Shown piece by piece: positions 40,070 through 60,492 of a DNA stretch of 64,000 bases. Positions within the stretch are counted from its first letter, which is position 1. Every line of letters begins with the position of its first letter. A model generated the notes under the pieces. That model was not told the origin of the DNA. It saw nothing but the letters and a program-made list of their open reading frames with translations, and made no database searches. Made by a program: the position numbers and the translations under genes. Origin of the DNA: Bdellovibrionia bacterium (GTDB lineage Bacteria; Bdellovibrionota; UBA1018); the NCBI GenBank assembly GCA_049424145.1, contig JBMSSC010000001.1, positions 16,017-80,016 of the forward strand. The letters are read 5' to 3'.

Positions 40070-40084
40070 AGGAAACGTGAATTC

Positions 40085-41470: not shown

Positions 41471-41587
41471 GAGGAGAAGCGCTCAAGGGTTTGCAGGAGG
41501 AGGGACTCTCTGACCCACTTCAAACAGAGCTTTTGGCCGAATCGGAGTTGGAAAATCGACTGGAAGCTTTTTTTTCTAGTTCTAGCC

Positions 41588-42646: not shown

Positions 42647-42655
42647 AGGGCCCAG

Positions 42656-43753
42656 ATGCAAACGCTTCAGCAAAAAAAGTTATTGGGGGCAGGCGGGGGA
42701 ACCGGAGGCCATGTTCTAGCCGGGGGGGCCATTGCAGAGGGGTGGGCTCAAAAGGCCCAAAGCTCCTCCAGTGTGCTCTTTGTGGGAGCGCGGGGGGGGA
42801 TTGAGGAAAGACTCGTGCCAAAAACCCCGTTTGCGCTCCGATTGCTTCGCGTGGGTTCTTTGAATCGCGTGAAGGTGACGCGTCAGCTGAAGACGCTGTT
42901 TGAGATCCCCTGGGCAATGGTGGTGTCGCTTCAGATTCTATTTCAGTTTCGACCCCACGCTGTGCTGGGCGTGGGAGGGTATAGCTCTGGACCGTTGGTG
43001 CTGATGGCGGCGCTTCTCAAAAAGCTGGGTCTGTTAAATTGCCAGGTGGCGATCTTGGAGCAAAACTCGGTGGTGGGCTTGACCAATCGTCTTTTAGGGC
43101 GCGTGGTGGATTCGGTTTTCACGGCTTTTCCGGGGATGGAGCCACAGTTTTTGGGTAAAAAAGTTATTTTTACGGGCAATCCCATTCGATCATCGATGAA
43201 ACAGCTGCCTTCTGCGCCGAGAGATCCCTTTACGATCTTTGTTTTTGGGGGCAGTCAGGGGGCCAGAGGAGTGAATCGTTTAGTGTTAGAGGCTCTGCCC
43301 GAACTGAAGCAAGTGAAACGTTCCATTCGTTTCATTCATCAAAGTGGGCAGGCGGATTTTGAGGAGGTTTTAAAAGCGCATCAAGCCGCAGGCATGGACT
43401 CTTGCGTGGAGAAGTTCATTGAAGACATGCCCAGTGCCTATGCTCAGGCGTCCCTTCTGGTCTGTCGTTCAGGAGCCTCCACATTGGCCGAGATTGCAGC
43501 CGTAGGACGAGCTGCGATTTTAGTTCCATTGCCGACAGCAGCCGATGATCATCAGAGTAAAAATGCCTGTGCCTATGTTCAAGCCGGTGCTGCTCAACTG
43601 ATGGATCAGAGAGTGGGCTCCGGAGCGAGTCTGGCTCAGTTGATTCAGGATCTCATGACTCGTCCGGATCAGATTGCAGCCATGGAGCGACGTGTGCTTG
43701 AATTTTATCGTCCACATGCGGCTCGGGATATTGTAGAGCATCTGTATGTTTAG
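42656..43753 (+). CDS. murG: UDP-N-acetylglucosamine--N-acetylmuramyl-(pentapeptide) pyrophosphoryl-undecaprenol GlcNAc transferase
   Basis: GT28 N-terminal G-loop (GGTGGHVLAGGAIAE) and a C-terminal domain with the sequence SGASTLAEIAAVG. Confidence 0.9.
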   Translation: MQTLQQKKLLGAGGGTGGHVLAGGAIAEGWAQKAQSSSSVLFVGARGGIEERLVPKTPFALRLLRVGSLNRVKVTRQLKTLFEIPWAMVVSLQILFQFRPHAVLGVGGYSSGPLVLMAALLKKLGLLNCQVAILEQNSVVGLTNRLLGRVVDSVFTAFPGMEPQFLGKKVIFTGNPIRSSMKQLPSAPRDPFTIFVFGGSQGARGVNRLVLEALPELKQVKRSIRFIHQSGQADFEEVLKAHQAAGMDSCVEKFIEDMPSAYAQASLLVCRSGASTLAEIAAVGRAAILVPLPTAADDHQSKNACAYVQAGAAQLMDQRVGSGASLAQLIQDLMTRPDQIAAMERRVLEFYRPHAARDIVEHLYV

Positions 43754-45152
43754 AAAAGAAGAAACCTGGCTTCATTTTGTAGGAATCGGTGGCATTGGCA
43801 TGAGTGGGATTGCCGAGGTGTTCTTAAACCAGGGATATCAAGTCAGCGGATCTGATTGGAGTGAGTCAGAAACCACCAAGCGCCTAGCCCAGTTAGGTGC
43901 GCGGGTCTTTCAAGGCCACAGTAAGGACCACGTGGGTTCAGCCAACGTGGTGGTCATTTCTTCAGCCGTGAAGCCGGATAATCCAGAGGTGGTGGAGGCC
44001 AAGGCCAGGCGGATTCCTATTATTCCTCGAGCAGAAATGTTGGGTGAGTTGATGAGAGGTAAGGTGGGTATTGCCGTGGCGGGAAGTCATGGAAAAACCA
44101 CCACCACCTCTCTTTTATCCACCGTCTTAACCTCAGCTGGGCTTGATCCGACGCTTGTGATTGGCGGCAAAGTGGACTCCTTGGGGGGCAATGCCAAGCT
44201 GGGTCGAGGGGAAATTGTGGTGGCTGAAGCCGATGAGAGCGATGGTTCGTTCCTGCATCTGCCTGCGACCATCGGAATTATTACTAATATTGACAACGAT
44301 CATTTGGATCACTTTGGGAGCCTCAGTGCTGTAGAAGACGCGTTTGTCGAGCTGGTCAGTCAGCTGCCTTTTTATGGTCTGGCTGTGATTTGTGGAGATG
44401 ATCCAGGAGTCAAGCGCTGCATGAGTCGGTGGAGTAAGCCGTATCAAACCTATGGACTCTCTGAGGAGTGTGATCTGTTTGCGCGCAAGATTGAGTACCA
44501 GGGGTTAGGCTCCACGTTTGAAGTGGTGAGGAAAGAACCGAGCGGGGCCCACCAATGCCTCGGTCAGTTCCAGCTCAAGGTGCCCGGGCAGCACAATGTT
44601 CTTAACGCTCTGGCTTGCATTTTAGTGGCCCTAAAGCTTGAGGTGGAGATCCCTAAAATTGCTCAGGGTTTAGCTGAGTTTCAAGGAGTGAAGCGCCGAT
44701 TCGACATTCGTTACTCCGATGAGCTGCGGCATCGGGCGATTGTGGATGATTACGCTCACCATCCCACTGAGCTGATGGCTACTTTAGAGGCGGCTCGGCG
44801 ATTTTGGAAAGGACGAATCATCAGTGTGTTTCAGCCGCATCGTTACAGTCGAACACTTCACTGTCATGATGGGTTTTTGTCCTCCTTCGTTCGATCGGAT
44901 GTGGTGATTTTAACGGATATCTACCCCGCAGGGGAGGAGCCCATTCCTGGAGTGAGTGCTCAGGGCTTGGCCGAGGAGATTCAACGCTTGGCTCGGGCGG
45001 ATCAAGTTGTGCTCTATGGGGGGGATTTAAAGAACACAGAAACCCTATTAAGTGGGCTTTTTAAGGATGGGGATTTAATCCTGTGTTTAGGGGCTGGATC
45101 CATAACGAAGCTTCCCGATCAGCTGACAGCCTTGCGGATGAAATCCGGATGA
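43746..45152 (+). CDS. murC: UDP-N-acetylmuramate--L-alanine ligase
   Basis: HFVGIGGIGMSGIAE N-terminus, P-loop GSHGKTTTT, Mur ligase middle and C-terminal domains. Confidence 0.9.
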   Translation: MFRKEETWLHFVGIGGIGMSGIAEVFLNQGYQVSGSDWSESETTKRLAQLGARVFQGHSKDHVGSANVVVISSAVKPDNPEVVEAKARRIPIIPRAEMLGELMRGKVGIAVAGSHGKTTTTSLLSTVLTSAGLDPTLVIGGKVDSLGGNAKLGRGEIVVAEADESDGSFLHLPATIGIITNIDNDHLDHFGSLSAVEDAFVELVSQLPFYGLAVICGDDPGVKRCMSRWSKPYQTYGLSEECDLFARKIEYQGLGSTFEVVRKEPSGAHQCLGQFQLKVPGQHNVLNALACILVALKLEVEIPKIAQGLAEFQGVKRRFDIRYSDELRHRAIVDDYAHHPTELMATLEAARRFWKGRIISVFQPHRYSRTLHCHDGFLSSFVRSDVVILTDIYPAGEEPIPGVSAQGLAEEIQRLARADQVVLYGGDLKNTETLLSGLFKDGDLILCLGAGSITKLPDQLTALRMKSG

Positions 45153-46099
45153 CTTCGTGGGATGAGAGTCGCTTTTGGAAAAATCCGGAGGGTTTTCGGG
45201 GAGAGCTCAGGTGGAATGAGCCGCTGTCCAAGCACACGTATTATCGGATTGGTGGACCGGCTCGGCTACTTGCTATACCGACTTCAGTTTCTGATCTGCA
45301 GTGGCTTGCTCAAGGGATTGAAAACTCAGGGGTTCGCTTTTTAGTCTTGGGTTTGGGCTCCAACGTTTTAGCCAGTGACGAGGGGTTTGCAGGGCTCGTT
45401 ATTCGGTTGCATCGACTGAATTTAAAAATTGAACCTCAATTCCAAAAAGACGACCCAGGCCTCGGTGCAACCGAGATTCTAACAGGAGCAAGTGTGGCCA
45501 ATTCCACGCTTTTAAGGCGAGCCGCTCAAGAGGGCTGGGGTGGGCTTGAGTTTCTCTCGGGGGTACCGGGTTCCGTAGGTGGTGCTGTGGTGATGAATGC
45601 AGGCACGCATCTGGGTGAGGCTCAAAGTCGGATTCGCAAGGTAGTGGCCTACCGTTTAGGGGAGTTTCAATCGGAGCCTGAGGTTTATGTGGGCGATCAG
45701 CTTCGCTTTGAGTATCGCTCGCATCGGTTTCTTCCGGTAGACTCCGTGGTGTACTCCGTGGTTTGGGAAGTGCAGAGGGATGAGCCAGCGCTCGTGCAGC
45801 AGCGGATCGATGAGATGCTTCGCAGACGAAAAAGCACTCAGCCCGTGGACTACCCCTCCTGCGGAAGTGTCTTTAAAAACCCAAAAGAATCTGGACTCTC
45901 GGCTTGGCAAGTGGTGGATCGTTTGGGTTTAAGAGGCCATCAAATTGGACAGGCTCAGTTTTCTCCCAAGCACAGCAATTTTATTATTAATCTCGGAGGT
46001 GCTCAAGCCAAAGATGTCCGAGCTCTCATTGAATTGGCCAAGATGCGGGCTCAGACGGAGCTTGGCATTACGCTTCAACAAGAAGTGATCTATATCTAG
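45149..46099 (+). CDS. murB: UDP-N-acetylenolpyruvoylglucosamine reductase
   Basis: FAD-binding PCMH domain (YRIGGPARLL, LGLGSNVL) and C-terminal MurB domain. The start overlaps the murC stop (ATGA at 45149-45152). Confidence 0.9.
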   Translation: MTSWDESRFWKNPEGFRGELRWNEPLSKHTYYRIGGPARLLAIPTSVSDLQWLAQGIENSGVRFLVLGLGSNVLASDEGFAGLVIRLHRLNLKIEPQFQKDDPGLGATEILTGASVANSTLLRRAAQEGWGGLEFLSGVPGSVGGAVVMNAGTHLGEAQSRIRKVVAYRLGEFQSEPEVYVGDQLRFEYRSHRFLPVDSVVYSVVWEVQRDEPALVQQRIDEMLRRRKSTQPVDYPSCGSVFKNPKESGLSAWQVVDRLGLRGHQIGQAQFSPKHSNFIINLGGAQAKDVRALIELAKMRAQTELGITLQQEVIYI

Positions 46100-46103
46100 C
46101 TTT

Positions 46104-47495
46104 TTATTCTTTTGAGAATAAAACCTCTTTCACCTCTTTGGGTTGTACGCCTGAGGCTTGAATCAAAGCGGCTCTGAGTTTTTTTGAGGTAGCAAGCACT
46201 GAGATGGCAAGTTGATCGGGTTTTAAGAAGTGGTTCAGCGCCTGATTGACCTGAGGGAGAGTGAGCTTCCTGAGTTCAGAGGCAAACGACTGCATGAAGC
46301 CTGTTGGAAGCTTGAGAGTTTTCTCCAAGATCTTATTTTCAACCCGCTTTTTAGGCGTGTTGTAGGTGAATCCCGAGCTCTGGATGAGGCTTTGCTGGGC
46401 AAACTCAAACTGCTGGGGCGTGAGTCCATGCTCTTTCAGCTGGGAAATGAGCTGAAGGGAGTGTTTGAGGGCTGCTGCTGCATCCGCTTGGGCAGGGTAC
46501 AGGTGCACGATCCATGAGCGGGGTTCTGTTCCGTGTCGAAATTGGCTGGAAACCCCATAGCTCCAGCCGCGCTTCACTCGAATCTCCTCCATTAAAGTGG
46601 AGGAAAAGGAGGGTCCGCCAAAGGCATGATTGCCCAAGTAAAGGCTGAAGAAATCAGGATCCGTCATCTTCACTCCAATTTGTCCGATGTGGATCTGGGT
46701 TTGAGTGCGATCCGGTTTATCGATGATTAAAAGTCGTCTTGTTTGTGCGTTCTCAGGGCGCCCCAGGGGAGTGGTGAGTCCTAAAGATGCTGTTGTGTTT
46801 GGGGTTTGAGGGGTAGGCGTACTGAGGAGTTTTTGCAGACTCTCGCCTAGGGTTTTTGCCCAAGCTTGGATGGGTTCCACAGGAGAGTCGCCTGAGCCGA
46901 GAATGAAAAGAGAGTCCTCTTTTAAAAGGGCCCGGTGATGAGCGAGCACTTGCTCTCTTGTCATGGATTCAATGTCTGGGGTTCTTCCCAAAACGGAGCG
47001 GCCGTAGGGGTGGTCTTGAAAGAGGAATTGAGTGAAGCTTCGTGTGGCCAAGCTGGAGTCGTGGCCTTTTTCCTCTTGGATTCCCGCGATGATTTCAGCC
47101 TTGAGTTTATCGATCTCCAGTTGTGGGAAAGAGGGCTCCGTCAGGAGTTCGCGTAGAAGGCTTAAGAAAGGGTTCAGTTGACTCGAGAGGACAGCTCCCC
47201 TGAAAATCAATGCCTCAGCTCGGGTCTCCACCTCAAGCTTGGCTCCCCATTGATCTAAAGCTTGATCGATTTGTGCTTTATTCTTCGAGCGTGTGCCCCG
47301 AAGGAGCATCTCCCCCATGAAGTTGGTGAGACCCATTTGCCCCTGGGGGTCTTTCACCGATCCATGGTTGAGCACCACATTGAGGTAGACTAGAGGTAAA
47401 TTTGAATTCTTCTCAAAGTCGACTTCAAGAGCGTGGCCTAAAGTGGCGCTCAGGAAACAGAGATATCCCAGTAGTGTCAGCACCCAGGGTTTCAT
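46104..47495 (-). CDS. M16-family peptidase, non-catalytic-type subunit (no HxxEH)
   Basis: Signal peptide (LLGYLCFLSATLGHA). Pitrilysin-like fold, but the zinc-binding inverted motif is absent (…MGLTNFMGEMLLRGT…). It overlaps the upstream M16 gene by 4 nt. Confidence 0.8.
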   Translation of the reverse strand: MKPWVLTLLGYLCFLSATLGHALEVDFEKNSNLPLVYLNVVLNHGSVKDPQGQMGLTNFMGEMLLRGTRSKNKAQIDQALDQWGAKLEVETRAEALIFRGAVLSSQLNPFLSLLRELLTEPSFPQLEIDKLKAEIIAGIQEEKGHDSSLATRSFTQFLFQDHPYGRSVLGRTPDIESMTREQVLAHHRALLKEDSLFILGSGDSPVEPIQAWAKTLGESLQKLLSTPTPQTPNTTASLGLTTPLGRPENAQTRRLLIIDKPDRTQTQIHIGQIGVKMTDPDFFSLYLGNHAFGGPSFSSTLMEEIRVKRGWSYGVSSQFRHGTEPRSWIVHLYPAQADAAAALKHSLQLISQLKEHGLTPQQFEFAQQSLIQSSGFTYNTPKKRVENKILEKTLKLPTGFMQSFASELRKLTLPQVNQALNHFLKPDQLAISVLATSKKLRAALIQASGVQPKEVKEVLFSKE

Positions 47496-48922
47496 GTTCG
47501 AGATCCTTTCTTTTTGAGACGATTCTCAAGCTTTGGGGTCCCAACGATCACGGTGCGTTCGCGGGGCTGAAAGTAGCGTTGAGCAACGCGCTGAATATCA
47601 CGAGGTTTGAGTGCGTCGACGGCTTTTTGCAGCTGAAGCCCCGCCTGAAAATCTCCGTGAAGCGTTTCATGGTGTCCTAAGAACATGGCTTTTGAGAAGT
47701 TCGAGCTCAATCCCTCGTAGAAGCTAAAGTTGAACTTGTTCTTAGCCTTTTGCAGTTCCTGGGTTGAGATGAGCGAGGTTTGAAGAACCGACAACTCATT
47801 TAAAATCACCTTCTCCGCCTGCTCAGCTCGTTTTCCTTGTTGCAGGGTGGCAGAAATCACGAATAACGATGGGTCTTTATTTCCATAGTTTCCACAATCC
47901 ACAGCGCTTGCGATGCCTGTCTCCACAAGGGCTTGATTCAGGCGGCTGCTCTTACTGCCTGCTAAGAGGTTTTGTAAGACCTCCAGAGCGGCAGTGTCCG
48001 GGCTTTGGGCTTGAGGCGAGTGGTAGCCCATTAAGATTTTCTCAAGCTCGATGTTGAGCTTGAGTTCCTTTTTTCTAAAAGCCATCTGAGGAGGTTCTTT
48101 AGGAACAAAGTGCGGAAGATCCACCTCCGCATCCACAGATCCGTAATACTTCTGAGCAAGTTTGAGCACGTCCTGGGTGTTCACGTCTCCTACGACCACT
48201 ACGGTGGCATGGGCTGGACTATAGAACCTCCGGTAAAACGCCATCGCATCGGCTGGACGCATTGCGTTTAAGTCCTTCTCATAGCCGATCACAGGCCAGT
48301 GATAGGGGTGTCGTTTAAAAGCTAGATCAAAAAGACTTTCCTCAAGTGTTCCATCCTGACTATTTTCAGTTCTCAGTCGACGCTCGTTTTGAACGACCTC
48401 TCGCTCGGTTTTAAATCCCTTTTCGTCAATCACAAGCTGGGTCATTCGATCGGACTCAAGCTTCATGACGAGCTCAAGTTGATCTTTGGGGAGTTCCTGC
48501 ACGTAGGCCGTGTAGTCATGAGAAGTAAACGCATTTTCTCCTAAAACCCCTGCCTTTTCTAAAAGACGATCAAATTCGCCTGCCTTGTAATTCTTAGTTC
48601 CTTTGAACATCATGTGTTCAAAGAAATGGGCGAGGCCCGTCTTCCCCACTTGTTCGTCTTTTGAGCCCACCTTGAACCAGGTTTGATAAGCAAAAGTGGG
48701 AGATGCGTGATCTTCCAGAACTAGGATCTTCAGTCCATTGGCCAGATGGAACGTGGTCACTTTAAAATCCCCAACCAAAGGTTTCACTCCGGCCTCAGTT
48801 GAAACTGATTTTTCCTCTACAGCCTTTAAAGGAAGCTCAGCCGCTTCAGAAAGGGAGAAGAAAAATGTGCAGCAAAGCAGTTGCAGGAAGCCTAGCCAGG
48901 TTGCGCGATCGTTTTTATTCAT
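47492..48922 (-). CDS. M16-family zinc peptidase, catalytic-type subunit (HxxEH present)
   Basis: HFFEHMMFKGT inverted zincin motif plus downstream Glu. Signal peptide if translation starts at MNKND (48922). The track start at 48997 adds 25 residues. Confidence 0.8.
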   Translation of the reverse strand: MNKNDRATWLGFLQLLCCTFFFSLSEAAELPLKAVEEKSVSTEAGVKPLVGDFKVTTFHLANGLKILVLEDHASPTFAYQTWFKVGSKDEQVGKTGLAHFFEHMMFKGTKNYKAGEFDRLLEKAGVLGENAFTSHDYTAYVQELPKDQLELVMKLESDRMTQLVIDEKGFKTEREVVQNERRLRTENSQDGTLEESLFDLAFKRHPYHWPVIGYEKDLNAMRPADAMAFYRRFYSPAHATVVVVGDVNTQDVLKLAQKYYGSVDAEVDLPHFVPKEPPQMAFRKKELKLNIELEKILMGYHSPQAQSPDTAALEVLQNLLAGSKSSRLNQALVETGIASAVDCGNYGNKDPSLFVISATLQQGKRAEQAEKVILNELSVLQTSLISTQELQKAKNKFNFSFYEGLSSNFSKAMFLGHHETLHGDFQAGLQLQKAVDALKPRDIQRVAQRYFQPRERTVIVGTPKLENRLKKKGSRT

Positions 48923-49015
48923 GATGGCCTTTTTGCACCTCTTTTGGGTCCGTTCTCTGATCTCCCTAAGATATGCTCTCGCACATCTTTTGTCCAACAG
49001 GTAGAATCAAGACCT

Positions 49016-49843
49016 ATGGTTCACTTCCATTGTAAAAAACTCATGCGTGCAGGTCTAGTGGGAAGTCTGATTCTCATGGGGCTGAGTCTGAGAGCAATTT
49101 TTCATCTCTCGATTTTTACGATTCATGCGATTGAGGTCAGAGGGATTCCTCAGGGTGCAGAGGTTTCAACTGCCTTTGTGTCTGAATCTGACCTCATTGA
49201 GCTTTCAGCCGTTCCTCTTCACGAAGTTTCTCTGTTTCAAATTGGAGTAGTCGAGTTGGAGCGTCGTCTTCAGTCGCATCCATGGGTCTCTCAAGTGAAA
49301 GTCATTCGAGGTTTTCCTCATCGCCTCATCTTGGATGTCCGTCTGAGAAAGCCCGTTGCTGTCTTCTCAGACGGTGGGCATGATTTAAGGTACATGGATG
49401 AGAGTGGAGCAACTTTTGGTCCCATACCGCTCGCTCAGCTCAAACCGTATCCTGTTTTGATGGGGTGCCTCAAAGATCCTGAAGTGGTTGCAAAAGCGCT
49501 GTTATTGATGAAGCAATGGGAGATGGCTTCGATTGGGAAACGGGCTGAGCTCACTTCCATAGATTATGATCGAGATCGAGGCTTCCGAGCAACCATGAGT
49601 TATGGCGCCTTGAAAAGTAAAATGCTGAATACAAAAAAACAAATGAGTCCCTTGCTTCCTGTAAGTGGAAGCCGTTATCGAACTCTAGTTGATTTTGGTC
49701 AAGAAATTGACGGAAAATTACTCTCACGTCTAGAGCAGCTTTCATCGGTTGTTCAATATTTATCCGACTATTCTTTACCCGTTCGTCAAATATGGGTGGA
49801 TGGAGATAAAAAGATTGTTGTCAAATCAGTTCCTCGTTCTTAG
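49016..49843 (+). CDS. ftsQ: cell division protein FtsQ (TM + POTRA + beta domain)
   Basis: TM helix GLVGSLILMGLSL followed by a POTRA-like region (IHAIEVRGIPQ…VKVIRGFPHRLILDVRLRKPVAV). ATG at 49016 chosen. Confidence 0.8.
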   Translation: MVHFHCKKLMRAGLVGSLILMGLSLRAIFHLSIFTIHAIEVRGIPQGAEVSTAFVSESDLIELSAVPLHEVSLFQIGVVELERRLQSHPWVSQVKVIRGFPHRLILDVRLRKPVAVFSDGGHDLRYMDESGATFGPIPLAQLKPYPVLMGCLKDPEVVAKALLLMKQWEMASIGKRAELTSIDYDRDRGFRATMSYGALKSKMLNTKKQMSPLLPVSGSRYRTLVDFGQEIDGKLLSRLEQLSSVVQYLSDYSLPVRQIWVDGDKKIVVKSVPRS

Positions 49844-49947
49844 AATTTAAGAGAGAGGAAATTTTTGCCTATCAATCCTGTGTAAACGAAGAAATCCTGC
49901 CGGGGAAGTGGTTTTGAAAATTCTAATACAGAAGGGTAATTTAAAAT

Positions 49948-51336
49948 ATGTTTGATATCAATCAGTTGGTTGCTCAAGGCGCAAAAATAAAAGTAGTTGG
50001 GGTCGGGGGGAGTGGTTGCAACGCAGTGAATACCATGATTCGCACGGGGCTTGAGGGCGTTGAATTTATAACGGCGAACACCGATCGGCAGGCGTTGGAT
50101 GCTTCTTTGGCTCCTGTGAAACTTGCGATCGGCCAAGAGTTGACCAAAGGGCTTGGAGCCGGAGCGAATCCCGAAGTGGGACGAAATGCTGCTTTAGAAG
50201 ATTACGCAAAAATCTCAGACCTCCTCTCGGGCTCAGACATGGTTTTCATCACTGCCGGTATGGGCGGTGGCACGGGAACAGGAGCCGCACCTGTATTTGC
50301 AAAAATTGCAAAAGAAGTGGGTGCTTTAACGGTGGGTGTGGTGACTAAACCGTTTCTTTTTGAAGGTCGTAAGAGAATGAAGCACGCTGAGCAGGGGATG
50401 AACTGCTTAAGAGAGAGTGTGGACTCGCTCATTACAATTCCAAACCAGAGACTTCTTGCGATTTCAGGCGCTACGTTGTCGATGGTGGATGCATTTAAAA
50501 AAGCTGATGAAGTTTTACTCAATGCAGTGCAGGGGATTTCTGATTTGATCAATCACACCGGTCTGATCAACAGTGACTTTGCCGACGTTAAGACGATTAT
50601 GCAGAATAAGGGCCTTGCCCTTATGGGGATCGGTTACGGGGATGGAGAGCACCGCGCGGTGGAGGCTGCGACCAACGCTATTTCCAGCCCTCTGCTTGAG
50701 GATGTCTCCATTGATGGCGCAACAGGGATCATCATTAATATTACGGGTGGAGAGACTCTGAAGATTCATGAAGTCAATGAGGCGACTACGCTGATTATGG
50801 AAGCGGCTCATGAGGATGCAGAAATCATCTTTGGTACGGTGATTGATGAAGCGTTTAAAGACCGTGTGAAAGTCACGGTGATTGCAACAGGGTTGGGCAA
50901 TAGCATTCGAGCCGCGCAGCAGCCTGAAAGAGTGAAGGAAAAAACGAGCTCCTCTGTTTTTGTTCCGCCTCAATATGCCGTGAATTCAGAGGCCTCTGCG
51001 AATTCCTCAGCTCAAGTGATGCCGCCTGCGCCTCCTGCGGCATTGAACTCCTCTCCCACAGGAGCTTCAGTTGTCGCGGAGTCTCAGCCAGGGGTATCTT
51101 TCAGTGCAGCCTCAGCGGATCCTTTGCTTCAAGCGGGCTCCGCTCATGCTCATGAGCCTCAGGGTCTTTCAGCCATCCCGCCGGTTCCTCCGACCTTGAA
51201 TCCAGGCGTGGGCGCTGAGACAGGAGAATTGGCTCGGGCTCGTTTGATTGCGCAAAAACTGGGAATCACCAACCTAACGGATGATCAGTATGTTCCGCCT
51301 GCGTATCTCAGAAGAGCTCAGGAGCCAGAAATTTAG
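49948..51336 (+). CDS. ftsZ: cell division GTPase FtsZ
   Basis: Tubulin signature GGGTGTG, T7 loop NLDFADV-like (NSDFADVKT), a long disordered linker, and a C-terminal conserved peptide [14 protein letters not shown]. Confidence 0.95.
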
Positions 51337-51397
51337 CTCACAAACCAAGCCCTGAGCGGGAAGGTTCAGGTGCTTAGCAGTCAAATGAATGGGTGAA

Positions 51398-51432
51398 ATA
51401 GCCTCTTTTGAAAAAAAGGGGCTATTTTTTTT
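51398..51432 (+). terminator. rho-independent terminator after ftsZ
   Basis: atagcctctttt / aaaaggggctat, a ~12-bp stem with GAAA loop, followed by a T8 run. Confidence 0.75.
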
Positions 51433-51618
51433 CCTTCCCTCCGGTTCTCCTGTTTTTCCTAGAAAATACCCGAGGTTTCGATCGATCGTGTGAGTGAGTG
51501 TTGTCGCTGACATTCTCGCGTCAGGGGGGCTTTTCACCTACAAGGCCTAGGATCCAAAAAGTCACCCGCGAATCGTCCGATGCTTTTCTCGATCCCATTT
51601 TTAGGGTAACGTACGGAA

Positions 51619-53061
51619 ATGTTGACGACTCACTCATCCCATAAAACAACTTGGGGCCTGATTTGGCTCAGTATCCTGCTGTTTTGGGGAGTCTCTTGGG
51701 AAGCTGAATTTGGAATGGACGCCATGACTTATGCGGGGTTGGCTCGACGGATCCTCATTCATCAAGACTGGAAAACTCTCCATTATTCTTCGCAGGGGTA
51801 TGAGAATTTCTATCAACATCCGCCTCTGGTGATGTGGCTTCTTGCGGGGGTGTTTAAAATCACGGGTGTCGCCAACGAGTGGACCGCGAAGATTCTTCCG
51901 TATCTTTTTTCCCTGGGGACTCTTCTGATGACCATTTTTTGGGGCTCTCAGGCGGCTCAGAGTTCATGGGGAGGTTTTCTTTCGGGCTTGATTCTTTTAA
52001 CTTCGACCCGTTTTATCAAGTATGCGCCGAGCCCGCTTTTAGATGGTTTTTTGGCCTTCTGGCTGATTCTGGGGGGATGGCTCTTGCTTCAATCCTTCAA
52101 TCCCAAAAGTAAGCCTTGGATTTGGGGTCCTCTGCAGGGAGTTTGTCTGGCTGGAGGGTTCTTAACCAAAGGGATGCCGACGCTGCTGCTGTTTTTTGGA
52201 CTGATGGCAAGCTGGATCACTCAGGGAGTGGTGAAGCGATCGAGGAAGGTCAATTTAGGTTTTTTTTTAGCGCTCACTGTCTTGGGTTGGATTCTATCCC
52301 TTTGGCTTTATGTGGGAGACGGACTGAATTATTTGGAGCATTATTGGATTGAGTCGGTCCAAGGGCGCCTGGGAGGGCACTCAGGATGGTTGGATTGGCT
52401 TGCTCCTATGCGTAATTTGTTTAAGGGGTACTGGCCCTGGAACTTGGTTTATTTTTATTCGATCTATGTGATTTGTGTGAAACAGACCAGGGCTAGAAAC
52501 GTCCTGTTTGAGCAAAAAATCACATCTTGGATTCCCCTTCTCGCATCTCTTGGGGTTTTAGGGGGCTTTTCGCTTTCGGGTCATTTCTTAGAACACTACT
52601 TAGTTCCCTTTTATCCCTTTGCCGCGATCGCCAGTGCCGTCTCCATTGCTCAGGTGACTGAACAGTGGAGGGAGGGAGTTACAAGGGTTTTTTTTATTCT
52701 TCTGATTTTTGTTACCCTCCTTCTGGCCACCTTTCCTATTCATACACAAGGGGTGGATTATCAAGATCCTCAGCGTAGGTTGCTGAAACGAGCGGCGAGC
52801 TCCTGTCATGGAGGGATTCGTCGGATTTATCTCTCTGCCGATGAGACGTCGTTTTGGTGGGGCTTGGCGATGGGAACTTGGTATACGCCATGGGATACGC
52901 GGGTTTTGAATCCGTCTGAGATCCCAGTAGATGAAAGGTCCGCACTTTTATTGAGCCGAAGACGAAATGACCTAGCAGGCAGCTGGGTGATGACCTCGTT
53001 GATTGAGGGGGATTTCAGGGTGTACCAGCGTCCAAATTCCCAAGCCTGTCCTGAGCTTTAA
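51619..53061 (+). CDS. GT-C-fold glycosyltransferase (ArnT/PMT family, GT83/GT39-like)
   Basis: First periplasmic loop with acidic motif (SWEAEFGMDAMTYAGLAR), KPPL-like YQHPPLVMWL, ~11 TM helices. 480 aa. Confidence 0.7.
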   Translation: MLTTHSSHKTTWGLIWLSILLFWGVSWEAEFGMDAMTYAGLARRILIHQDWKTLHYSSQGYENFYQHPPLVMWLLAGVFKITGVANEWTAKILPYLFSLGTLLMTIFWGSQAAQSSWGGFLSGLILLTSTRFIKYAPSPLLDGFLAFWLILGGWLLLQSFNPKSKPWIWGPLQGVCLAGGFLTKGMPTLLLFFGLMASWITQGVVKRSRKVNLGFFLALTVLGWILSLWLYVGDGLNYLEHYWIESVQGRLGGHSGWLDWLAPMRNLFKGYWPWNLVYFYSIYVICVKQTRARNVLFEQKITSWIPLLASLGVLGGFSLSGHFLEHYLVPFYPFAAIASAVSIAQVTEQWREGVTRVFFILLIFVTLLLATFPIHTQGVDYQDPQRRLLKRAASSCHGGIRRIYLSADETSFWWGLAMGTWYTPWDTRVLNPSEIPVDERSALLLSRRRNDLAGSWVMTSLIEGDFRVYQRPNSQACPEL

Positions 53062-54020: not shown

Positions 54021-55439
54021 ATGCAGATACCAAGGATGGCTTTGCTTTTGAGTTTGACTCTCGGGGTCAGTCTCAGTTTTGGGCTGGGTCGTGTGAGCGC
54101 CGCTGATTTTAAACCAGGAGAGCTCATCGTGAAGTACAAAAGCGGAGCGATCCGAACGCGCGCTCAAGTGAATGCACTTTACCAAACTGTGGGAGTCAAA
54201 AGTGCCAATCACTTCTCGGGCGTGATGACTGGGTTTGATCACTGGATCTTGGATGAGGGGGTTAAGCTTCAGGACGCGATTCATGAGGTCAGTCAAAGTG
54301 AGCTCGTCGAATATGCTCAGCCCAACTACGTTCTGCATGTGCTTCCGATCGAAGACGAATCAGAGGATCCTGACTTCACCCCTGCACTTGCCGCTTTGGG
54401 GAAGTGCTGGTTTCCTGGGGTGAGTTTTCCCCCGGGTTGCGAGAAAAAAAGTGCAACTCAGCCTAAGCCAGGGGAGCTGGCTGATAGTCGGCCTGCACTT
54501 CAGGAACCACCGCTTGAGGTGATCCCTTCGTTAAAAGATCCTGATTTGAGTCGTGACTATGGCATGGCCAAGATTCGTGCCAATGAGGCCTGGGCTGTAA
54601 CTCGCGGATCCAAAGAGATCGTGGTGGCTGATATTGATACGGGAATTGACTATAATCATGAGGATTTGGCGTTCAATGTGTGGAGGAATCCTAATCCGGG
54701 AGAGAAGAACGACATCGTGGGATTTGATTTCGTCCATAATGATGGATTGCCATATGACGACAATGGACATGGCACTCACACAGCAGGAACGATTGGAGCT
54801 GTCGGAGGAAACGGGATAGGGACCTCGGGAGTGATTCAGAGGGTCTCCATCATGAGTCTTAAGTTCTTAGATGGGGACGGAAGTGGAACCACTGCCGATG
54901 CGATTCGAGCGATTGATTATGCCATTGAGCATGGCGCCAGGGTCTTGAGTAATAGTTGGGGTGGCCGTGGTGATCCAGATAATCCGGCTCTGAAAGAAGC
55001 GATTGATCGGGTTAAAGCAAAAGATGTGCTTTTTGTCGCAGCAGCCGGCAATGATGGAGTCGATAATGATGGTCCGAACGCGAGTTATCCTGCTGCATTC
55101 ACAACCGAAAACCTGATTTCAGTTGCGGCAACAGATGAGCGAGATGGTTTGGCCTCTTTCTCCAATTATGGAAAAAAGACGACCCACCTTGCAGCACCTG
55201 GAGTGAAGATCTACAGTACGGCTCCAGGGAGTCGCTATAAGAGTCTCTCGGGGACCTCCATGGCGTGTCCCCATGTGGCAGGCGCTGCAGCCTTGCTCTG
55301 GTCTATTCATCCAAACTGGGGCTATCAGAAAATTAAAGAGGTTCTTCTCGGTACCGTAGATCCGGTGTCCTCGCTTGCTCGAAAGACGATCACAGGTGGG
55401 AGGCTTAACGTGGGACGGGCCCTGAATTATTCTGAGTAG
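54021..55439 (+). CDS. secreted subtilisin-like serine protease (S8) with N-terminal propeptide
   Basis: Signal peptide. Catalytic triad motifs DTGIDYNHEDL, HGTHTAG and GTSMACPHVAGAAALL. Confidence 0.85.
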   Translation: MQIPRMALLLSLTLGVSLSFGLGRVSAADFKPGELIVKYKSGAIRTRAQVNALYQTVGVKSANHFSGVMTGFDHWILDEGVKLQDAIHEVSQSELVEYAQPNYVLHVLPIEDESEDPDFTPALAALGKCWFPGVSFPPGCEKKSATQPKPGELADSRPALQEPPLEVIPSLKDPDLSRDYGMAKIRANEAWAVTRGSKEIVVADIDTGIDYNHEDLAFNVWRNPNPGEKNDIVGFDFVHNDGLPYDDNGHGTHTAGTIGAVGGNGIGTSGVIQRVSIMSLKFLDGDGSGTTADAIRAIDYAIEHGARVLSNSWGGRGDPDNPALKEAIDRVKAKDVLFVAAAGNDGVDNDGPNASYPAAFTTENLISVAATDERDGLASFSNYGKKTTHLAAPGVKIYSTAPGSRYKSLSGTSMACPHVAGAAALLWSIHPNWGYQKIKEVLLGTVDPVSSLARKTITGGRLNVGRALNYSE

Positions 55440-55577: not shown

Positions 55578-57020
55578 GTGGGGACAATTCAAAAGATATT
55601 AAGATTCGGCCTAGGGTTTCTCGGGATTGGATTGCTCCATCCTGCTTGGGCCCAGCTACCCTTTGTTCAAGGCGAGGTTTTAGTGAAGTACAAGCAGGGG
55701 GTTCTGCGTGAGCGTGTGAGTATGAATGCGCTTTACGATTCCGTGGGAGCCTCTCGTGTTCATCGGTTTCACGGGGCTGTGGGGAGTTTTGAGAAACTGG
55801 TCTTAGACGATCGCCAGGGAGTGGCCGAGGTCGTTAGTCGCTTACAAAATGAAGATTCTGTGGAATGGGCGCAGCCGAACTACCTTCTTCATCTTCTGCC
55901 GGTATTTCCGGCTGCGGAACGACAAGTGCGTGAGCCGCAAATTGAGACTCTGCCGTTTGCTCCATGGGCATCGGAGTTGGCGGGGTTGAGTCCATGGGAT
56001 GATTCCGGTTCTGAGGCTGAGATCAGCCGTAGGAAGCCAAAAAAAGACCCCTCTTTCGATCGTCCCCGGATTCATCCGCTGCCTCTGCATGAACCTGAGG
56101 TCGTGGTTGATCCCGATTTAGCTCAAGCCTATGGTTTGAGTAAGATTGGGGCGCCTCAGGTCTGGCCGTTTGCTCGCGGGAGTCGCTCCATTATCGTGGC
56201 GGATATCGATACGGGAGTGGATTATAATCATCCAGACTTAGTTTTTAATATTTGGAGAAATCCCCATCCGGTGAAGAACGATTTAGTGGGATTTGATTTT
56301 GTCCACCAAGATGGATTGCCCTACGATGACAATGAACATGGGACCCATGTGGCAGGGATCATTGGGGCGGTCGGGTCCAATGGTCTGGGAGTTTCCGGGG
56401 TGAGTCAGCGGGTCTCAATCATGGTGCTGAAATTCCTCAGTGGATCGGGCTCAGGAACAACCTCCGATGCGATTGAAGCCATTGATTATGCCGTATCGCA
56501 CGGAGCAAAGGTTTTAAATAACAGTTGGGGCAGCTCTGGCGGGTCAGGCAAGGACAATCAGTTGCTGATTGAGGCGTTTCATCGGGCCCGAGATCGGGGA
56601 GTGTTATTCATTGCTGCAGCCGGCAATGAAGGAAATGATAACGACGGCGAAGAAGCGGACTATCCGGCGGCCTTTCATTTGGAAAATGAGATTGCCGTGG
56701 CGGCAAGTGATGAAAAAGATGAGCTTGCTGAGTTCTCCAACTACGGGAAAAAAACCACTCACCTTGCTGCCCCTGGGGTTAACATCTACAGCACGGTTCC
56801 AGGAGGGGGCTATCGGGCGCTTTCAGGATCTTCTATGGCTGCTCCGATGGTGTCCGGAGCAGCGGCTCTGCTTTGGTCTGCACATCCGGATTGGACGGAT
56901 CAACAAATTAAGCAGGCTCTTTTGGATTCAGTCGATGCGATCCCCTCGCTGAAGGCTAAGGTCAGTACGGGGGGAAGACTCAATGTGGCCAATGCATTTT
57001 TTAGGCGCATCGGCCATTAA
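55578..57020 (+). CDS. secreted subtilisin-like serine protease (S8), paralogue of 54021..55439
   Basis: GTG start. Signal peptide. DTGVDYNHPDL, HGTHVAG, GSSMAAPMVSGAAALL. Co-linear with the upstream paralogue. Confidence 0.85.
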   Translation: MGTIQKILRFGLGFLGIGLLHPAWAQLPFVQGEVLVKYKQGVLRERVSMNALYDSVGASRVHRFHGAVGSFEKLVLDDRQGVAEVVSRLQNEDSVEWAQPNYLLHLLPVFPAAERQVREPQIETLPFAPWASELAGLSPWDDSGSEAEISRRKPKKDPSFDRPRIHPLPLHEPEVVVDPDLAQAYGLSKIGAPQVWPFARGSRSIIVADIDTGVDYNHPDLVFNIWRNPHPVKNDLVGFDFVHQDGLPYDDNEHGTHVAGIIGAVGSNGLGVSGVSQRVSIMVLKFLSGSGSGTTSDAIEAIDYAVSHGAKVLNNSWGSSGGSGKDNQLLIEAFHRARDRGVLFIAAAGNEGNDNDGEEADYPAAFHLENEIAVAASDEKDELAEFSNYGKKTTHLAAPGVNIYSTVPGGGYRALSGSSMAAPMVSGAAALLWSAHPDWTDQQIKQALLDSVDAIPSLKAKVSTGGRLNVANAFFRRIGH

Positions 57021-57165
57021 TTGAAAAAAAACCCAAAAAAAGAAAAGATGGTCTTAAGGCGCTGAGCGCAGTTTAAGGCATCTACACTGCATTGGTCGAA
57101 AAAAACCGCTGAGCTCAGGCTTAAGTGCTCCTTGGGATCCCATCAAACGCAGCGCTTGGTTTGGG

Positions 57166-57576
57166 TTAAGCAAATTTTCTTGAAAACGTTGCTCCTAAGC
57201 TCTTATGCTCGCGACCCATGGCCGTTAAGACTTCTTTTCGTTCCTGCTCTTCTTTGCAGGAGACGCAAAGAGTCGCCGTCGGACGGGCTTCGAGTCGTCG
57301 GATCTCAATGTCCTCTTGGCACTCTTGACACTCACCAAACGTTCCGTCTTCAATTCGTTTGAGAGCTTCGTCAATTTTTTTAATGTAGAGCGTTTCGCGA
57401 TTTCTGAGTCGCATTCTCATGGCTTGTTCGATGTCAGTGGTGGCTTGATCAATTTCATCGTAGCGATCATCGGCGCAAACACTGAAGTCTTCTCGAACCA
57501 CTCGATCGTTGAATAAAATTTTCTCTCTCTGGGATTCAAAAATTCTTTTGAATTTCCTGATGATTTCCTTTTTCAT
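57166..57576 (-). CDS. DksA/TraR-family C4 zinc-finger protein
   Basis: DxxDxA tip (DEIDQAT). C4 finger CQECQEDIEIRRLEARPTATLCVSC. It overlaps the mglA stop by 4 nt. Confidence 0.8.
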   Translation of the reverse strand: MKKEIIRKFKRIFESQREKILFNDRVVREDFSVCADDRYDEIDQATTDIEQAMRMRLRNRETLYIKKIDEALKRIEDGTFGECQECQEDIEIRRLEARPTATLCVSCKEEQERKEVLTAMGREHKSLGATFSRKFA

Positions 57577-58166
57577 GGTGTTTCTGCCCCCTTAAGTTCA
57601 CGGATGATCGATTGACTGATGGATTGTAGGGTTTCCATAACGCCTTGTCCACTATTTGCAACAGCTTCGAAATAGGGGCGACGCATGGGGTTAAAGGTTG
57701 CTTCCATTTCTGAAATACTCACAACTCCAGGCATATCTCTTTTGTTGTACTGAAAAACAAGAGGTAGTTTGCTGAGATCGTATCCTTGTTTTTCAAGGCT
57801 CTTTTCAAGAGCTTCAAATGCTTCAATATTGGACTCCATTCGTTCGGATTGGCTATCGGCAACAAAGACGATTCCGTCAACGCCTTTGAGAATAAATTGC
57901 CTGGAGACTTCGTAAAACGTTTGCCCAGGAATGGTATAAAGGTGAAAGCGCGTTTTGTAGCCCTTGACCTCGCCGATGGCCAGAGGCAGAAAATCAAAAA
58001 AGAGGGTTCGTTCGTTTTCAGTGCTCAGAGTCACCAGCTTTCCTCGGTGGGCTTGCTGCGTGTGCTCATAAATGTATTGAACGTTGGTTGTTTTTCCGCT
58101 TAATCCAGGACCAAAGTAGATGACTTTGCAGTTAATCTCTTTGGTCGCATAATTGATGAAGCTCAC
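57573..58166 (-). CDS. mglA: Ras-like small GTPase MglA
   Basis: 197 aa. The first half is near-identical to Myxococcus MglA (MSFINY…REINCK…Y.GPGL.GKTTN.QYIY…TLFFDFLP…RFHLYT.PGQ.FY…ILKGVDG.VFVADSQ). Confidence 0.9.
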   Translation of the reverse strand: MSFINYATKEINCKVIYFGPGLSGKTTNVQYIYEHTQQAHRGKLVTLSTENERTLFFDFLPLAIGEVKGYKTRFHLYTIPGQTFYEVSRQFILKGVDGIVFVADSQSERMESNIEAFEALEKSLEKQGYDLSKLPLVFQYNKRDMPGVVSISEMEATFNPMRRPYFEAVANSGQGVMETLQSISQSIIRELKGAETP

Positions 58167-58787
58167 TTAATTGATCTCCATTCGGTTTTCTAATGCTTTA
58201 CTCAGGGTTTGTCGGTCAGTGTATTCCAATAAGCCGCCGACAGGAAGACCATGAGCTAATTTTGTTAATCGCATTCCCAATGGTTTTAGCAGTTGAATGA
58301 GGTACAGGCTAGTGGCTTCTCCCTCGACACTTGAGTTTGTAGCTAAAATTATTTCCCGAATGTTATTCTCTGTGGATTGAAGTCGAGTCAAAAGCTCGCG
58401 GATCTTGAGTTCCTCAGGACCAATTCCATCTAAAGGCGAGAGCGTGCCATGAAGGACATGGTAAACGCCATTGAAAGTATGCGATTGCTCCAGTGAGTAG
58501 ACATCGCTGGGCCTCTCAACAATGCAAAGGAGGCTTGTGTCTCGCTCGGTGTCCAGGCAAATGGAACAGGTTTGAGCATGAGTGAACGTCAGACAGAGGT
58601 GGCAGAGGTGAGTTTTTTTCTTTGCATTTAAAACGGCATCCGAGAGTGCCTGTGCATAGGTCTCCTCCTGCTTTAAGATGAAATAAGAAAGCCGTGCAGC
58701 CGTTTTTTGTCCGATTCCGGGGAGCTTCGAGAGCTCAAAGATCAGTTTGGCTACAGGATCTCTGTGGTCAACTGGAGGTCTTTGCAT
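58167..58787 (-). CDS. recR: recombination protein RecR
   Basis: HhH (LPGIGQKTAARL), C4 zinc finger (CHLCLTFTHAQTCSIC), Toprim domain. I chose the start at M8 (58787). The track start at 58808 overlaps dnaX further. Confidence 0.85.
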   Translation of the reverse strand: MQRPPVDHRDPVAKLIFELSKLPGIGQKTAARLSYFILKQEETYAQALSDAVLNAKKKTHLCHLCLTFTHAQTCSICLDTERDTSLLCIVERPSDVYSLEQSHTFNGVYHVLHGTLSPLDGIGPEELKIRELLTRLQSTENNIREIILATNSSVEGEATSLYLIQLLKPLGMRLTKLAHGLPVGGLLEYTDRQTLSKALENRMEIN

Positions 58788-60492
58788 GCGGGTTCTCGAT
58801 GATCTCAATTTGGCCTAGTTCTCCTCCAAAAAGAGATTTGGCCTCAAGTAAGATCGGATGATTGAGGATTTTTTCTTTAAGTAAATTGGTCTGCTCTTGT
58901 TTGGCTCGTTCTTTTTTATGGATCAAGCTTTCCCCTGAACTCTTCATTTCAATCTGAAGTCGAACCGGAGCACCGAAGTACTCCCGGCTGAGCTGAAGAA
59001 GTTGTTCCTGATAGGTACGGGTTTGCAATTGCTCGCGGAAGTAGAGATTTTCGGAGTTAAAATAAATGACCAGTTCTGCTTGGGCCTGAGGGGAGGAAGG
59101 GATACTCGAGTCACAGGCATGCTCTAAGATCGAAGCCAAAAGGGGCCTCGTTTTTCTGATGTGATCAATGAGGCCCTCCCAGCAGACTTTTCCTGGCTTT
59201 TGAGCAGAGCTCGTTTTTGAGGCTAGCGGTACCTCAGGGCGAGCTAAGTTCTGCGGCTGAGACTGCGGCTGTGGCTGAGACTGAGGAGTGGGAACGCTAG
59301 GAGGATTTCTTTCAGCGTGAGATTCAACCGGGGTGAGGCTCCGAGGCTTTTGGGCTGGCTCTTGGCTCAGGGAGTTGAGCTCAATGAATGCGTCGGCTGT
59401 GGCACACTTAATGATCAAAACGTCTAAGACGATCTTGGGCTGAAGCGACTTGGCCACCCATTCGAGTCCCGTGTGAAAGATTTGAAAGATGAACTCAAGT
59501 TCTTCCAGGGGTCTGAGTTGTGCGAGGCTCTGAAGCTCTTGGTATTCTTCTTCAGAAAAGGAGCTGAAGCTCGTCAAAGGGGCTCCAACCTGAGCTAAAA
59601 GACAGCCATGTAAGAATTCAATGAGGGTTCGAGTGAAAACGCGGAGGTCATGGCCTTCCTCATAAGCTCTTTCGATCAGAGGAAGACACTCCTTGGGGTT
59701 TCTTTTAAAGATCCCCGAGAGAATGCCTAAGATCACTTGTCCATCCATGAGTCCAATGCTCTGTCGAACAGAAGTTAAGGTGACCCGGGAGCCTGAAAAC
59801 GCAATGACTTGATCTAATAATGAAAGCGCATCGCGCATGCTGCCTTCGGCCGAGCGCGCAATGAGGGCTAAAGAAGCAGGCTCCGCTTCAATGCCCTCAG
59901 CTTGAACGATGAATTTTAAGCGCGCTTCAATTTGTGCGAGATTCACTCGTCTATAATCAAAGCGTTGGCAGCGGGATAAAATTGTGGCAGGGATTTTATG
60001 AGGCTCTGTGGTAGCAAAAATAAAGATCACATGCGCAGGGGGCTCTTCTAGGGTCTTTAATAAAGCATTGAAGGCGGCTGTTGTGAGCATGTGGACTTCA
60101 TCGATGATGTAGATTTTTCGGTCGCCCGTTAAAGGCATGTATTTGGCGTTTTCCCGAATTTCTCGAACCGCATCGACTCCATTATTGGAGGCTCCGTCGA
60201 TTTCAATCACATCCACACTGTTGCCTTGAGTGATCTCTCGACAGCTGGCGCATTGATCACAGGACTGAAGAAAGTCTCCTTCGATTTGGATCTGTTGGCA
60301 ACGAACGGCTTTTGCAAAAATACGCGCAATCGAGGTCTTCCCAACGCCTCGAGCACCCGTAAAAAGGTAGGCTTGATGAATCCTCTTGAGTTGAATGGCA
60401 TTGCTGAGAGTGCGAACAATATGGCTTTGGCCCACGATGTGTGAGAATTGCGCTGGACGCCATTTCCTGGCCAAGACTACATACGGTGCCAC
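58768..60492 (-). CDS. dnaX: DNA polymerase III subunit tau/gamma
   Basis: AAA+ clamp-loader motifs (GARGVGKTS, DEVHML, SRC). Zinc module CDQCASC. Low-complexity PQSQPQPQSQPQ linker. Confidence 0.9.
   Translation of the reverse strand: MAPYVVLARKWRPAQFSHIVGQSHIVRTLSNAIQLKRIHQAYLFTGARGVGKTSIARIFAKAVRCQQIQIEGDFLQSCDQCASCREITQGNSVDVIEIDGASNNGVDAVREIRENAKYMPLTGDRKIYIIDEVHMLTTAAFNALLKTLEEPPAHVIFIFATTEPHKIPATILSRCQRFDYRRVNLAQIEARLKFIVQAEGIEAEPASLALIARSAEGSMRDALSLLDQVIAFSGSRVTLTSVRQSIGLMDGQVILGILSGIFKRNPKECLPLIERAYEEGHDLRVFTRTLIEFLHGCLLAQVGAPLTSFSSFSEEEYQELQSLAQLRPLEELEFIFQIFHTGLEWVAKSLQPKIVLDVLIIKCATADAFIELNSLSQEPAQKPRSLTPVESHAERNPPSVPTPQSQPQPQSQPQNLARPEVPLASKTSSAQKPGKVCWEGLIDHIRKTRPLLASILEHACDSSIPSSPQAQAELVIYFNSENLYFREQLQTRTYQEQLLQLSREYFGAPVRLQIEMKSSGESLIHKKERAKQEQTNLLKEKILNHPILLEAKSLFGGELGQIEIIENPHAKTSS

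Follow-up and report, generated by a model that had tools for sequence, protein, structure and literature searches.

MglA, a Ras-like small GTPase, is the master switch for front-rear polarity among the myxobacteria. The Myxococcus mglB gene is located upstream of mglA (Milner 2014, PMC3983030), and among 449 MglA proteins surveyed, 390 have a Roadblock GTPase-activating protein (GAP) encoded nearby, within a few genes (Wuichet 2014, PMC4316618). The synteny of dnaX, recR, mglA and DUF149, together with the loss of mglB from Bdellovibrio bacteriovorus, was published in 2014 (Milner, PMC3983030), so that neither the linkage to recR nor the absence of mglB is a new theme. The same study found B. 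bacteriovorus MglA to be required for prey invasion and pilus formation, proposed that its Ser21 is GTP-locking, which would explain the loss of mglB, and described a very divergent mglB of 168 amino acids between recR and mglA in Bacteriovorax marinus, upstream of mglA as in Myxococcus (BMS_0053, BMS_0054; PMC3983030). One of the dksA genes of Bdellovibrio is expressed in attack phase (PMC2797640). Here we describe an mglA gene in a 64-kb stretch of DNA from a Bdellovibrionia bacterium (contig JBMSSC010000001.1; the whole stretch is called the window below), which directly follows dnaX and recR and overlaps a gene encoding a DksA-like protein. The four-gene block dnaX-recR-mglA-dksA-like is genuine and conserved across a well-sampled lineage.

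The locus of B. bacteriovorus HD100 (Bd3734), from the same phylum, also has mglA directly after recR in the dnaX cluster and no mglB at the locus, but its MglA carries S21, the cluster retains DUF149/ybaB and a DksA-like gene is not reported downstream of mglA, whereas the window combines G21 with an overlapping dksA-like gene. Two Bdellovibrionales loci of our sample (L014 and L015) likewise differ from the window in having nadA or other genes downstream of mglA. The recR-mglB'-mglA layout of B. marinus recurs on four contigs of sister lineages (L086, L134, L135 and L137), where mglB' denotes the divergent Bdellovibrionota-type gene, while the window has no mglB'. The mglBA system of M. xanthus shares with the window the P-loop, Arg53, Thr78, Gln82 and NKxD of MglA, but its co-transcribed partner is the Roadblock GAP MglB encoded upstream, whereas the window has recR upstream, a DksA paralogue downstream and no Roadblock gene in 64 kb. 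No link of the GTPase MglA or of MglB to DksA was found in the literature, where the matches were name collisions (Francisella MglA, which is SspA-like, and the Escherichia coli galactose transporter mglB), and no prior description of a conserved DksA-like partner of mglA was found in the searchable literature. New here are the mglA-dksA-like operon variant of a known module and a new DksA subfamily.

Layout and conservation of the four-gene block

The four open reading frames (ORFs) lie on the minus strand (Table 1), placed as the original prediction had them, with abutting or overlapping boundaries. The TAA of recR (58169-58167) abuts the GTG of mglA (58166), while the TGA of mglA (57575-57573) overlaps the ATG of the dksA-like gene (57576-57574) in the 4 nucleotides (nt) ATGA. 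Each of these two starts follows a Shine-Dalgarno-like motif embedded in the 3' end of the preceding gene (Table 1), and the motif GGAG(A/G)T is kept at the recR/mglA junction of related loci. The overlap of dnaX and recR comprises 20 nt if recR begins at its ATG, the likelier start, or 41 nt if it begins at TTG; the choice rests on an N-terminal comparison with relatives and on L001, an exact-sequence contig in which the recR gene call has 206 amino acids. No ybaB was found between dnaX and recR or anywhere in the window (tblastn with two YbaB proteins), in agreement with the earlier claim that the two genes overlap directly. The tight mglA-dksA-like arrangement also stands, and co-transcription is likely. 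A consensus scan for internal promoters returned 7 sites against 4.2 ± 1.9 expected, i.e. noise, and the sites inside recR and mglA fall in conserved coding sequence. The candidate operon terminator, a hairpin followed by a T-rich run, sits in the 145 nt that separate the dksA-like stop from a convergent S8 protease gene; it was missed by a consensus terminator scan, and no structure was detected in the first 81 nt past the dksA-like stop (z = -0.21). Terminators of the same hairpin and T-run type, stronger than that of the window, lie 3' of the dksA-like gene in L003, L009, L010, L011 and L013.

With MglA as the query, a search that took a single genome for each GTDB species yielded 49 loci. 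Thirteen of them encode an MglA with 68-90% identity to that of the window, and all thirteen are metagenome-assembled genomes (MAGs) labelled Bdellovibrionia, Oligoflexia or Bacteriovoracaceae. The order dnaX-recR-mglA-dksA-like is present in 13/13 of these species genomes, and neither a ybaB-sized ORF nor a Roadblock gene occurs within 5 kb in any of the 13. At the mglA/dksA-like junction, 12 of the 13 have a G-rich Shine-Dalgarno-like run together with an overlap of ATGA or GTGA, while the gene next downstream of the block varies from genome to genome and the block itself is constant.

As a reverse test, metagenomes were scanned with an alignment of the DksA-like proteins, and mglA was found directly upstream in all 23 loci whose DksA-like relative shares at least 68% identity. 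The adjacency is also kept in a divergent sub-clade of five loci, where the identity falls to 66-68% for MglA and to about 50-57% for the DksA-like protein. About 45 remaining metagenome matches (43-53% identity) are other DksA proteins, near which no MglA, RecR or DnaX is encoded. Over all loci, 45 dksA-like ORFs directly follow mglA. The same block occurs on a 743-kb contig (L052), where synteny reaches the upstream genes for a mechanosensitive channel (MS-channel), MGMT and GT87. In the protein database the DksA-like protein has 873 relatives, and the best 120 of these are nearly all exactly 136 amino acids long. As the order holds in 13/13 species genomes and 23/23 metagenome loci while the flanking genes vary, the block reflects more than chance.

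Several minor observations concern the organism and its sampled relatives. The exact MglA sequence of the window was recovered only on two short Logan contigs, L001 (4.6 kb) and L002 (0.9 kb), and the MglA of the nearest species-representative genome is only 90% identical, so that the window organism apparently has no close representative in the reference collection. A 404-amino-acid recR-mglA fusion in L006 was rejected as an artefact of masked bases, which appear as XXXX in the translation. In the window, about 6 kb separate the operon from a division and cell-wall gene cluster (DivIC-like, FtsI/PBP and FtsZ); on the sister contig L137, which bears mglB, FtsZ and FtsA are encoded no more than 3 kb from the dksA-like gene. 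As FtsZ is near the operon in both, synteny reaches well past the four genes.

MglA and the DksA-like protein

Residues 1-193 of the window MglA align to M. xanthus MglA (PDB 6h17/5ymx) with E = 2e-80, and the protein also matches MglA of Thermus thermophilus (3t12; E = 3e-66). The identification of MglA rests on alignment with the sequences of known MglA structures, as the profile libraries used contain no dedicated MglA profile. Overall, 59.9% of residues are identical to M. xanthus MglA, with 69% in the N-terminal half against 50% in the C-terminal half; the high similarity previously noted for the N-terminal half is therefore present, but the likeness spans the full length of the protein. 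The motifs are in register with those of M. xanthus and comprise the P-loop GPGLSGKT (with G21), R53, T78, Q82 and NKRD, contained in the segments YFGPGLSGKTT, ENERTLFFDF, LYTIPGQ and QYNKRD. Thr78 in place of the Ras-type Asp is given as a hallmark of the MglA family (PMC3000849). By its sequence the window MglA is a canonical switch with intact catalytic residues, namely G21, the intrinsic Arg53 and Gln82, which answers the point raised by the original prediction about a catalytic Arg and Gln. The reference sequences of M. xanthus MglA and E. coli DksA used here agree with the aligned PDB sequences.

Four Oligoflexales MAGs (L044, L048, L049 and L050; Table 1) carry a degenerate MglA-like gene beside dnaX and have no recR there. 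In its product Arg53 and Gln82 are missing and the P-loop is altered, while the ORF that follows encodes 141-162 amino acids and matches neither Pfam and NCBIfam nor a local MglB profile. The MglA-like protein could be a pseudo-GTPase with a partner diverged beyond recognition.

The DksA-like protein contains the Pfam domains DksA_N (33.1 bits, cut-off 27) and zf-dskA_traR (42.1 bits, cut-off 24.9), and shares 41% identity over 109 residues with E. coli DksA (1tjl; E = 1e-18). The coiled-coil tip DxxDxA is present as D40-E-I-D43-Q-A45, aligned to D71/D74/A76 of E. coli DksA, and the zinc finger comprises C83, C86, C104 and C107; the tip and the four cysteines, both of which had been read from the sequence before, are invariant in 53 homologue clusters. 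R91, L95, K98, R129 and K139 of E. coli DksA contact guanosine tetraphosphate (ppGpp) at site 2, where L95 contacts the base (PMC7676912), and four of these five residues are matched in the DksA-like protein (R60, K67, R98 and K108, equivalent to R91, K98, R129 and K139), again invariant in the 53 clusters. The C-terminal tail reads G121 R122 x H K125 S126 L G128 .. F131 S132 ... A136 and is as invariant as the zinc finger in the same clusters; neither E. coli DksA nor the other DksA of the window has it. In an AlphaFold2 model with a mean predicted local distance difference test (pLDDT) of 78.6, the best Foldseek match was E. coli DksA bound to RNA polymerase (RNAP) (7khi_M; template modelling (TM) score 0.69), with DksA structures at 0.66-0.69.

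Compared with E. coli DksA (1tjl, 5vsw and 7khi), the window protein shares the fold of coiled coil and C4 zinc finger (TM 0.69), the tip, R91, K98, R129 and K139, but it lacks the 33-residue N-terminal extension, has Tyr for L95 and carries its own tail, GRxHKSLG...A. DksA2 of Pseudomonas aeruginosa (4ijj; TM 0.69-0.73, E = 5e-16) resembles it as a second DksA-type protein beside another. P. aeruginosa DksA2 has no zinc-binding cysteines, whereas the DksA-like protein keeps all four, and the coupling to mglA has no counterpart in DksA2. A distance tree places the copies next to mglA, and the local paralogues of these, in a group separate from other DksA proteins. The family is a new and well-conserved subfamily of DksA with a C-terminal motif of its own.

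The mglA-linked protein is one of several DksA paralogues of the genome, which has at least one more. A second DksA gene of the window, about 1.8 kb upstream of priA, encodes a protein of 128 amino acids with the tip DAVDQAA and a C4 finger but without the C-terminal tail, which is 37% identical to the mglA-linked DksA-like protein and also scores under the cut-off of the DksA equivalog model TIGR02420 (96.3 bits). It may be the housekeeping DksA. In many related genomes a tandem paralogue of the dksA-like gene lies 0.1-3 kb downstream (Table 1), in which the tail GRxHKSLG is kept and the tip alanine is lost (DxxDxT/S). DxxDxA is kept in 45/45 mglA-adjacent copies versus 4/27 nearby paralogues; the window has no paralogue of this kind.

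mglB in the sister lineages and the meaning of the pairing

The absence of mglB from the locus, as originally predicted, was borne out by several searches. Robl_LC7 had no match among the small ORFs of the window, a local MglB hidden Markov model found nothing on all stop-to-stop frames of the 64 kb (best E = 1.9) or within ±5 kb of mglA in the 13 related genomes, and tblastn with Bdellovibrionota-type MglB' found no match in the window. Judged on the window and the flanks of the clade loci, the window MglA is an "orphan" MglA in the sense of PMC4316618.

The sister-lineage contigs L086, L134, L135 and L137 read dnaX-ybaB-recR-mglB'-mglA-spacer-dksA-like; ybaB is present in these four and in L014 and L028. 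MglB' comprises 165-170 amino acids on the four contigs, and the L086 protein aligns with M. xanthus MglB from end to end (E = 1.5e-7). The DksA-like proteins of these lineages bear the same tip and tail, and the spacer between mglA and the dksA-like gene measures 80-140 nt. A protein-database search for L086-type MglB' returned 5 proteins with a single sequence and 11 with a profile, versus the 873 relatives of the DksA-like protein; every MglB' context inspected was a recR-mglB'-mglA locus of a sister lineage, and none was on a long contig with the operon of the window clade. This search argues against an L086-type MglB' in the clade, and is silent on a canonical MglB encoded elsewhere. The original prediction had mglA followed by a DksA-like gene rather than by mglB, which has to be corrected in that the slot of mglB is between recR and mglA and the sister lineages carry both genes. 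As the dksA-like gene already follows mglA while mglB is present, it is not an mglB replacement, and the idea of a positional replacement was ruled out by the upstream slot and by the four contigs that carry both.

Residue 21 of MglA is Ser or Ala only in L014 (Bdellovibrionales) and in the mglB'-bearing sister lineages among the loci sampled here. The four contigs that keep mglB thus have Ser21 or Ala21 (Table 1), and the window clade has Gly21 without mglB at the locus, which is the reverse of the correlation published by Milner in 2014. The rule of G21 with mglB and S21 on its loss is therefore complicated by these lineages.

The reading that we favour, with confidence only a little above even, is that dnaX-recR-mglA-dksA-like is a compact, translationally coupled operon of an uncultured Bdellovibrionota clade, in which a normal MglA switch and an RNAP-acting DksA paralogue are made together. 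The ancestor would have had dnaX-ybaB-recR-mglB-mglA, the spacer of 80-140 nt and the dksA-like gene, as in the sister lineages; the window clade would then have lost ybaB and mglB at the locus, and the spacer would have closed to the 4-nt overlap. MglA would act as a normal nucleotide switch, and the DksA-like protein would be a lineage-specific DksA paralogue that places its coiled-coil tip in the secondary channel of RNAP and is predicted to be ppGpp-responsive. Through the overlap the two proteins would be made jointly, and plausibly during one phase of the life cycle, given that in Bdellovibrio a dksA gene is expressed in attack phase and MglA is required for prey invasion. We infer the co-transcription, the RNAP binding and ppGpp response of the DksA-like protein, and any physiological role that it shares with MglA.

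A number of points weigh against this reading. Co-transcription is deduced from the DNA sequence, and the spacer of the sister lineages could hold a separate promoter. The DksA-like protein scores 91.8 bits with the NCBIfam DksA equivalog TIGR02420, below the cut-off of 115.5, and is a member of the DksA/TraR family that is uncertified as the DksA orthologue. The equivalent of E. coli L95 is Tyr64, and the tail, where pLDDT is about 50, has no counterpart in characterised DksA proteins. As this lineage tail is invariant without a known counterpart, the protein may act beyond, or differently from, canonical DksA. Finally, gene adjacency by itself cannot tell shared function from inherited gene order.

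The last point leads to the possibility that the adjacency is a frozen accident in a little-rearranged locus, without functional meaning, which we consider unlikely. The gene neighbourhoods of Group 1 MglA vary widely (Wuichet and Sogaard-Andersen, PMC4316618), and mglA has long stood beside the functionally unrelated dnaX and recR (PMC3983030), so that sharing this operon does not have to imply a common function; synteny beyond the block, to the MS-channel, MGMT and GT87 genes of L052 and to FtsZ in L137 and the window, would also fit simple inheritance. However, the downstream genes differ while the block is constant, the adjacency outlasts deep divergence and the loss of mglB and ybaB, and the junction looks selected, having tightened from a spacer of 80-140 nt to a conserved overlap of 4 nt and an embedded Shine-Dalgarno-like run. 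It is quite unlikely that the partners of the DksA-like protein are instead the dnaX clamp loader and recR, with RNAP cleared or destabilised so as to avoid replication-transcription conflicts and help to repair gaps or breaks, and with mglA as an unrelated passenger of an old cluster. E. coli DksA does avert replication-transcription conflicts and support repair, and its loss is synthetically sick with loss of HolC, a subunit of the clamp loader (PMC8092217); moreover, the dksA-like gene with mglA is never away from recR in the sampled loci. Yet it always follows mglA and never stands beside dnaX or recR, in the sister lineages it stands last in the cluster, separated from mglA by a spacer, the dnaX-ybaB-recR clusters of other bacteria and of L014, L015 and L028-L030 carry no DksA gene, and RecR or DnaX was nearby for none of 35 DksA homologues not linked to mglA.

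A direct module, in which the GTP or GDP form of MglA binds the DksA-like protein, for example via the tail, so that polarity or motility state gates an RNAP factor or the DksA-like protein modulates the nucleotide cycle of MglA, appears very unlikely. Coupling through the 4-nt overlap and embedded Shine-Dalgarno-like run, kept in 12/13, favours matched co-production; the adjacency survives divergence of MglA to about 62% and of the DksA-like protein to about 50%; the tail residues G121, R122, K125, S126, G128, F131, S132 and A136 are invariant in the 53 clusters and specific to the subfamily; and the clade MglA keeps GAP-competent residues though mglB is not nearby. Against this, the functional link of MglA to RNAP would be guilt by association, drawn from gene adjacency, while the DksA-like protein coexists with mglB in the sister lineages and so did not arise as a GAP replacement, the retained RNAP and ppGpp determinants suffice to explain strong conservation, and the tail also occurs in nearby paralogues that do not adjoin mglA. 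The specific proposition that MglA, in a nucleotide-dependent manner, binds the tail and thereby controls access to the RNAP secondary channel, or that the DksA-like protein sets the nucleotide state of MglA, is the most doubtful of those considered. A mirror-tree comparison over 39 loci, in which the distances of the DksA-like protein correlate as well with those of RecR (r = 0.763, partial 0.372) as with those of MglA (r = 0.764, partial 0.373), gives no signal of co-evolution specific to MglA, and does not separate the explanations considered here.

With the coupled operon as the favoured reading, the clade offers a GAP-competent MglA (G21, R53 and Q82) with no neighbouring mglB and a constant DksA-type partner, which bears on how MglA is regulated without MglB and is relevant to research on predatory bacteria and polarity GTPases. 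A functional pairing would, for the first time, link a bacterial small GTPase to an RNAP secondary-channel factor, and if MglA and the DksA-like protein act on each other directly, the cell-pole or motility state of these predators would be wired to stringent-type control of transcription. If the pairing has no function, the locus still records the remodelling of an ancestral dnaX-ybaB-recR-mglB-mglA cluster in the Bdellovibrionota.

Feature coordinates and other observations

Table 1. Coordinates of the operon, its signals and the other features described; positions are those of the window unless a contig is named.
Feature	Position	Strand	Basis or remark
dnaX, DNA polymerase III gamma/tau subunit, 574 amino acids, first gene of the block	58768..60492	-	TIGR02397, 440 bits; Pfam DNA_pol3_delta2/gamma3
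recR	58167..58808	-	TIGR00615, 236.7 bits (cut-off 162.55); 213 amino acids from TTG 58808, likelier about 206 from ATG 58787
mglA, Ras-like polarity GTPase, 197 amino acids, GTG start	57573..58166	-	M. xanthus MglA match
dksA-like, 136 amino acids	57166..57576	-	Pfam DksA_N and zf-dskA_traR
GGAG Shine-Dalgarno-like motif in the recR 3' end, 9 nt before the mglA GTG	58176..58179	-	sequence reading
AAGGGGG Shine-Dalgarno-like run in the mglA 3' end, 10 nt before the dksA-like ATG	57587..57593	-	sequence reading
Candidate operon terminator, hairpin (about -11 kcal/mol) then T-rich run	57036..57083	-	RNAfold scan
Tandem dksA-like paralogues of related genomes	L004 6071-6475; L006 7195-7599; L011 6186-6593; L012 6315-6707; L013 9102-9590; L047 8191-8598; L052 11719-12123		
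mglA with Ser21/Ala21, mglB kept	L086 1499-2086; L134 1927-2520; L135 3965-4552; L137 5039-5632		
Degenerate MglA-like, Oligoflexales	L044 2068-3115; L048 4667-5758; L049 2327-3368; L050 5001-6091		
Second DksA gene	5818-6204	+	
priA	7989-10004		
Division and cell-wall cluster	34869-53061		
FtsZ, in this cluster	49948-51336		
FtsZ and FtsA, sister contig	L137 8325-11042		
S8 subtilisin-type protease genes, two	54021-55439; 55578-57020	+	
Tandem duplication, two copies	23239-26469; 26470-29700		100% identical
RCC1-repeat genes, one in each copy	24085-26442; 27316-29673		

Two paralogous genes for secreted S8 subtilisin-type proteases converge on the operon from the opposite strand (Table 1). 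A convergent ORF of like size (467-474 amino acids) follows the dksA-like gene in L003, L007, L008 and L023; that of L086 has 520 amino acids with subtilisin catalytic motifs, and that of L001 is an S8 protease by Pfam. No tRNA genes or Rfam matches were found across the whole window.

Elsewhere the window contains a perfect tandem duplication of 3231 bp, each copy of which carries a gene for an RCC1-repeat beta-propeller of 785 amino acids. This duplication is either a very recent event or an assembly artefact. RCC1 has the fold of the guanine nucleotide exchange factor of Ran in eukaryotes, and such repeats are common in bacteria; in a genome that also encodes a Ras-like GTPase, the RCC1-repeat genes are a curiosity.

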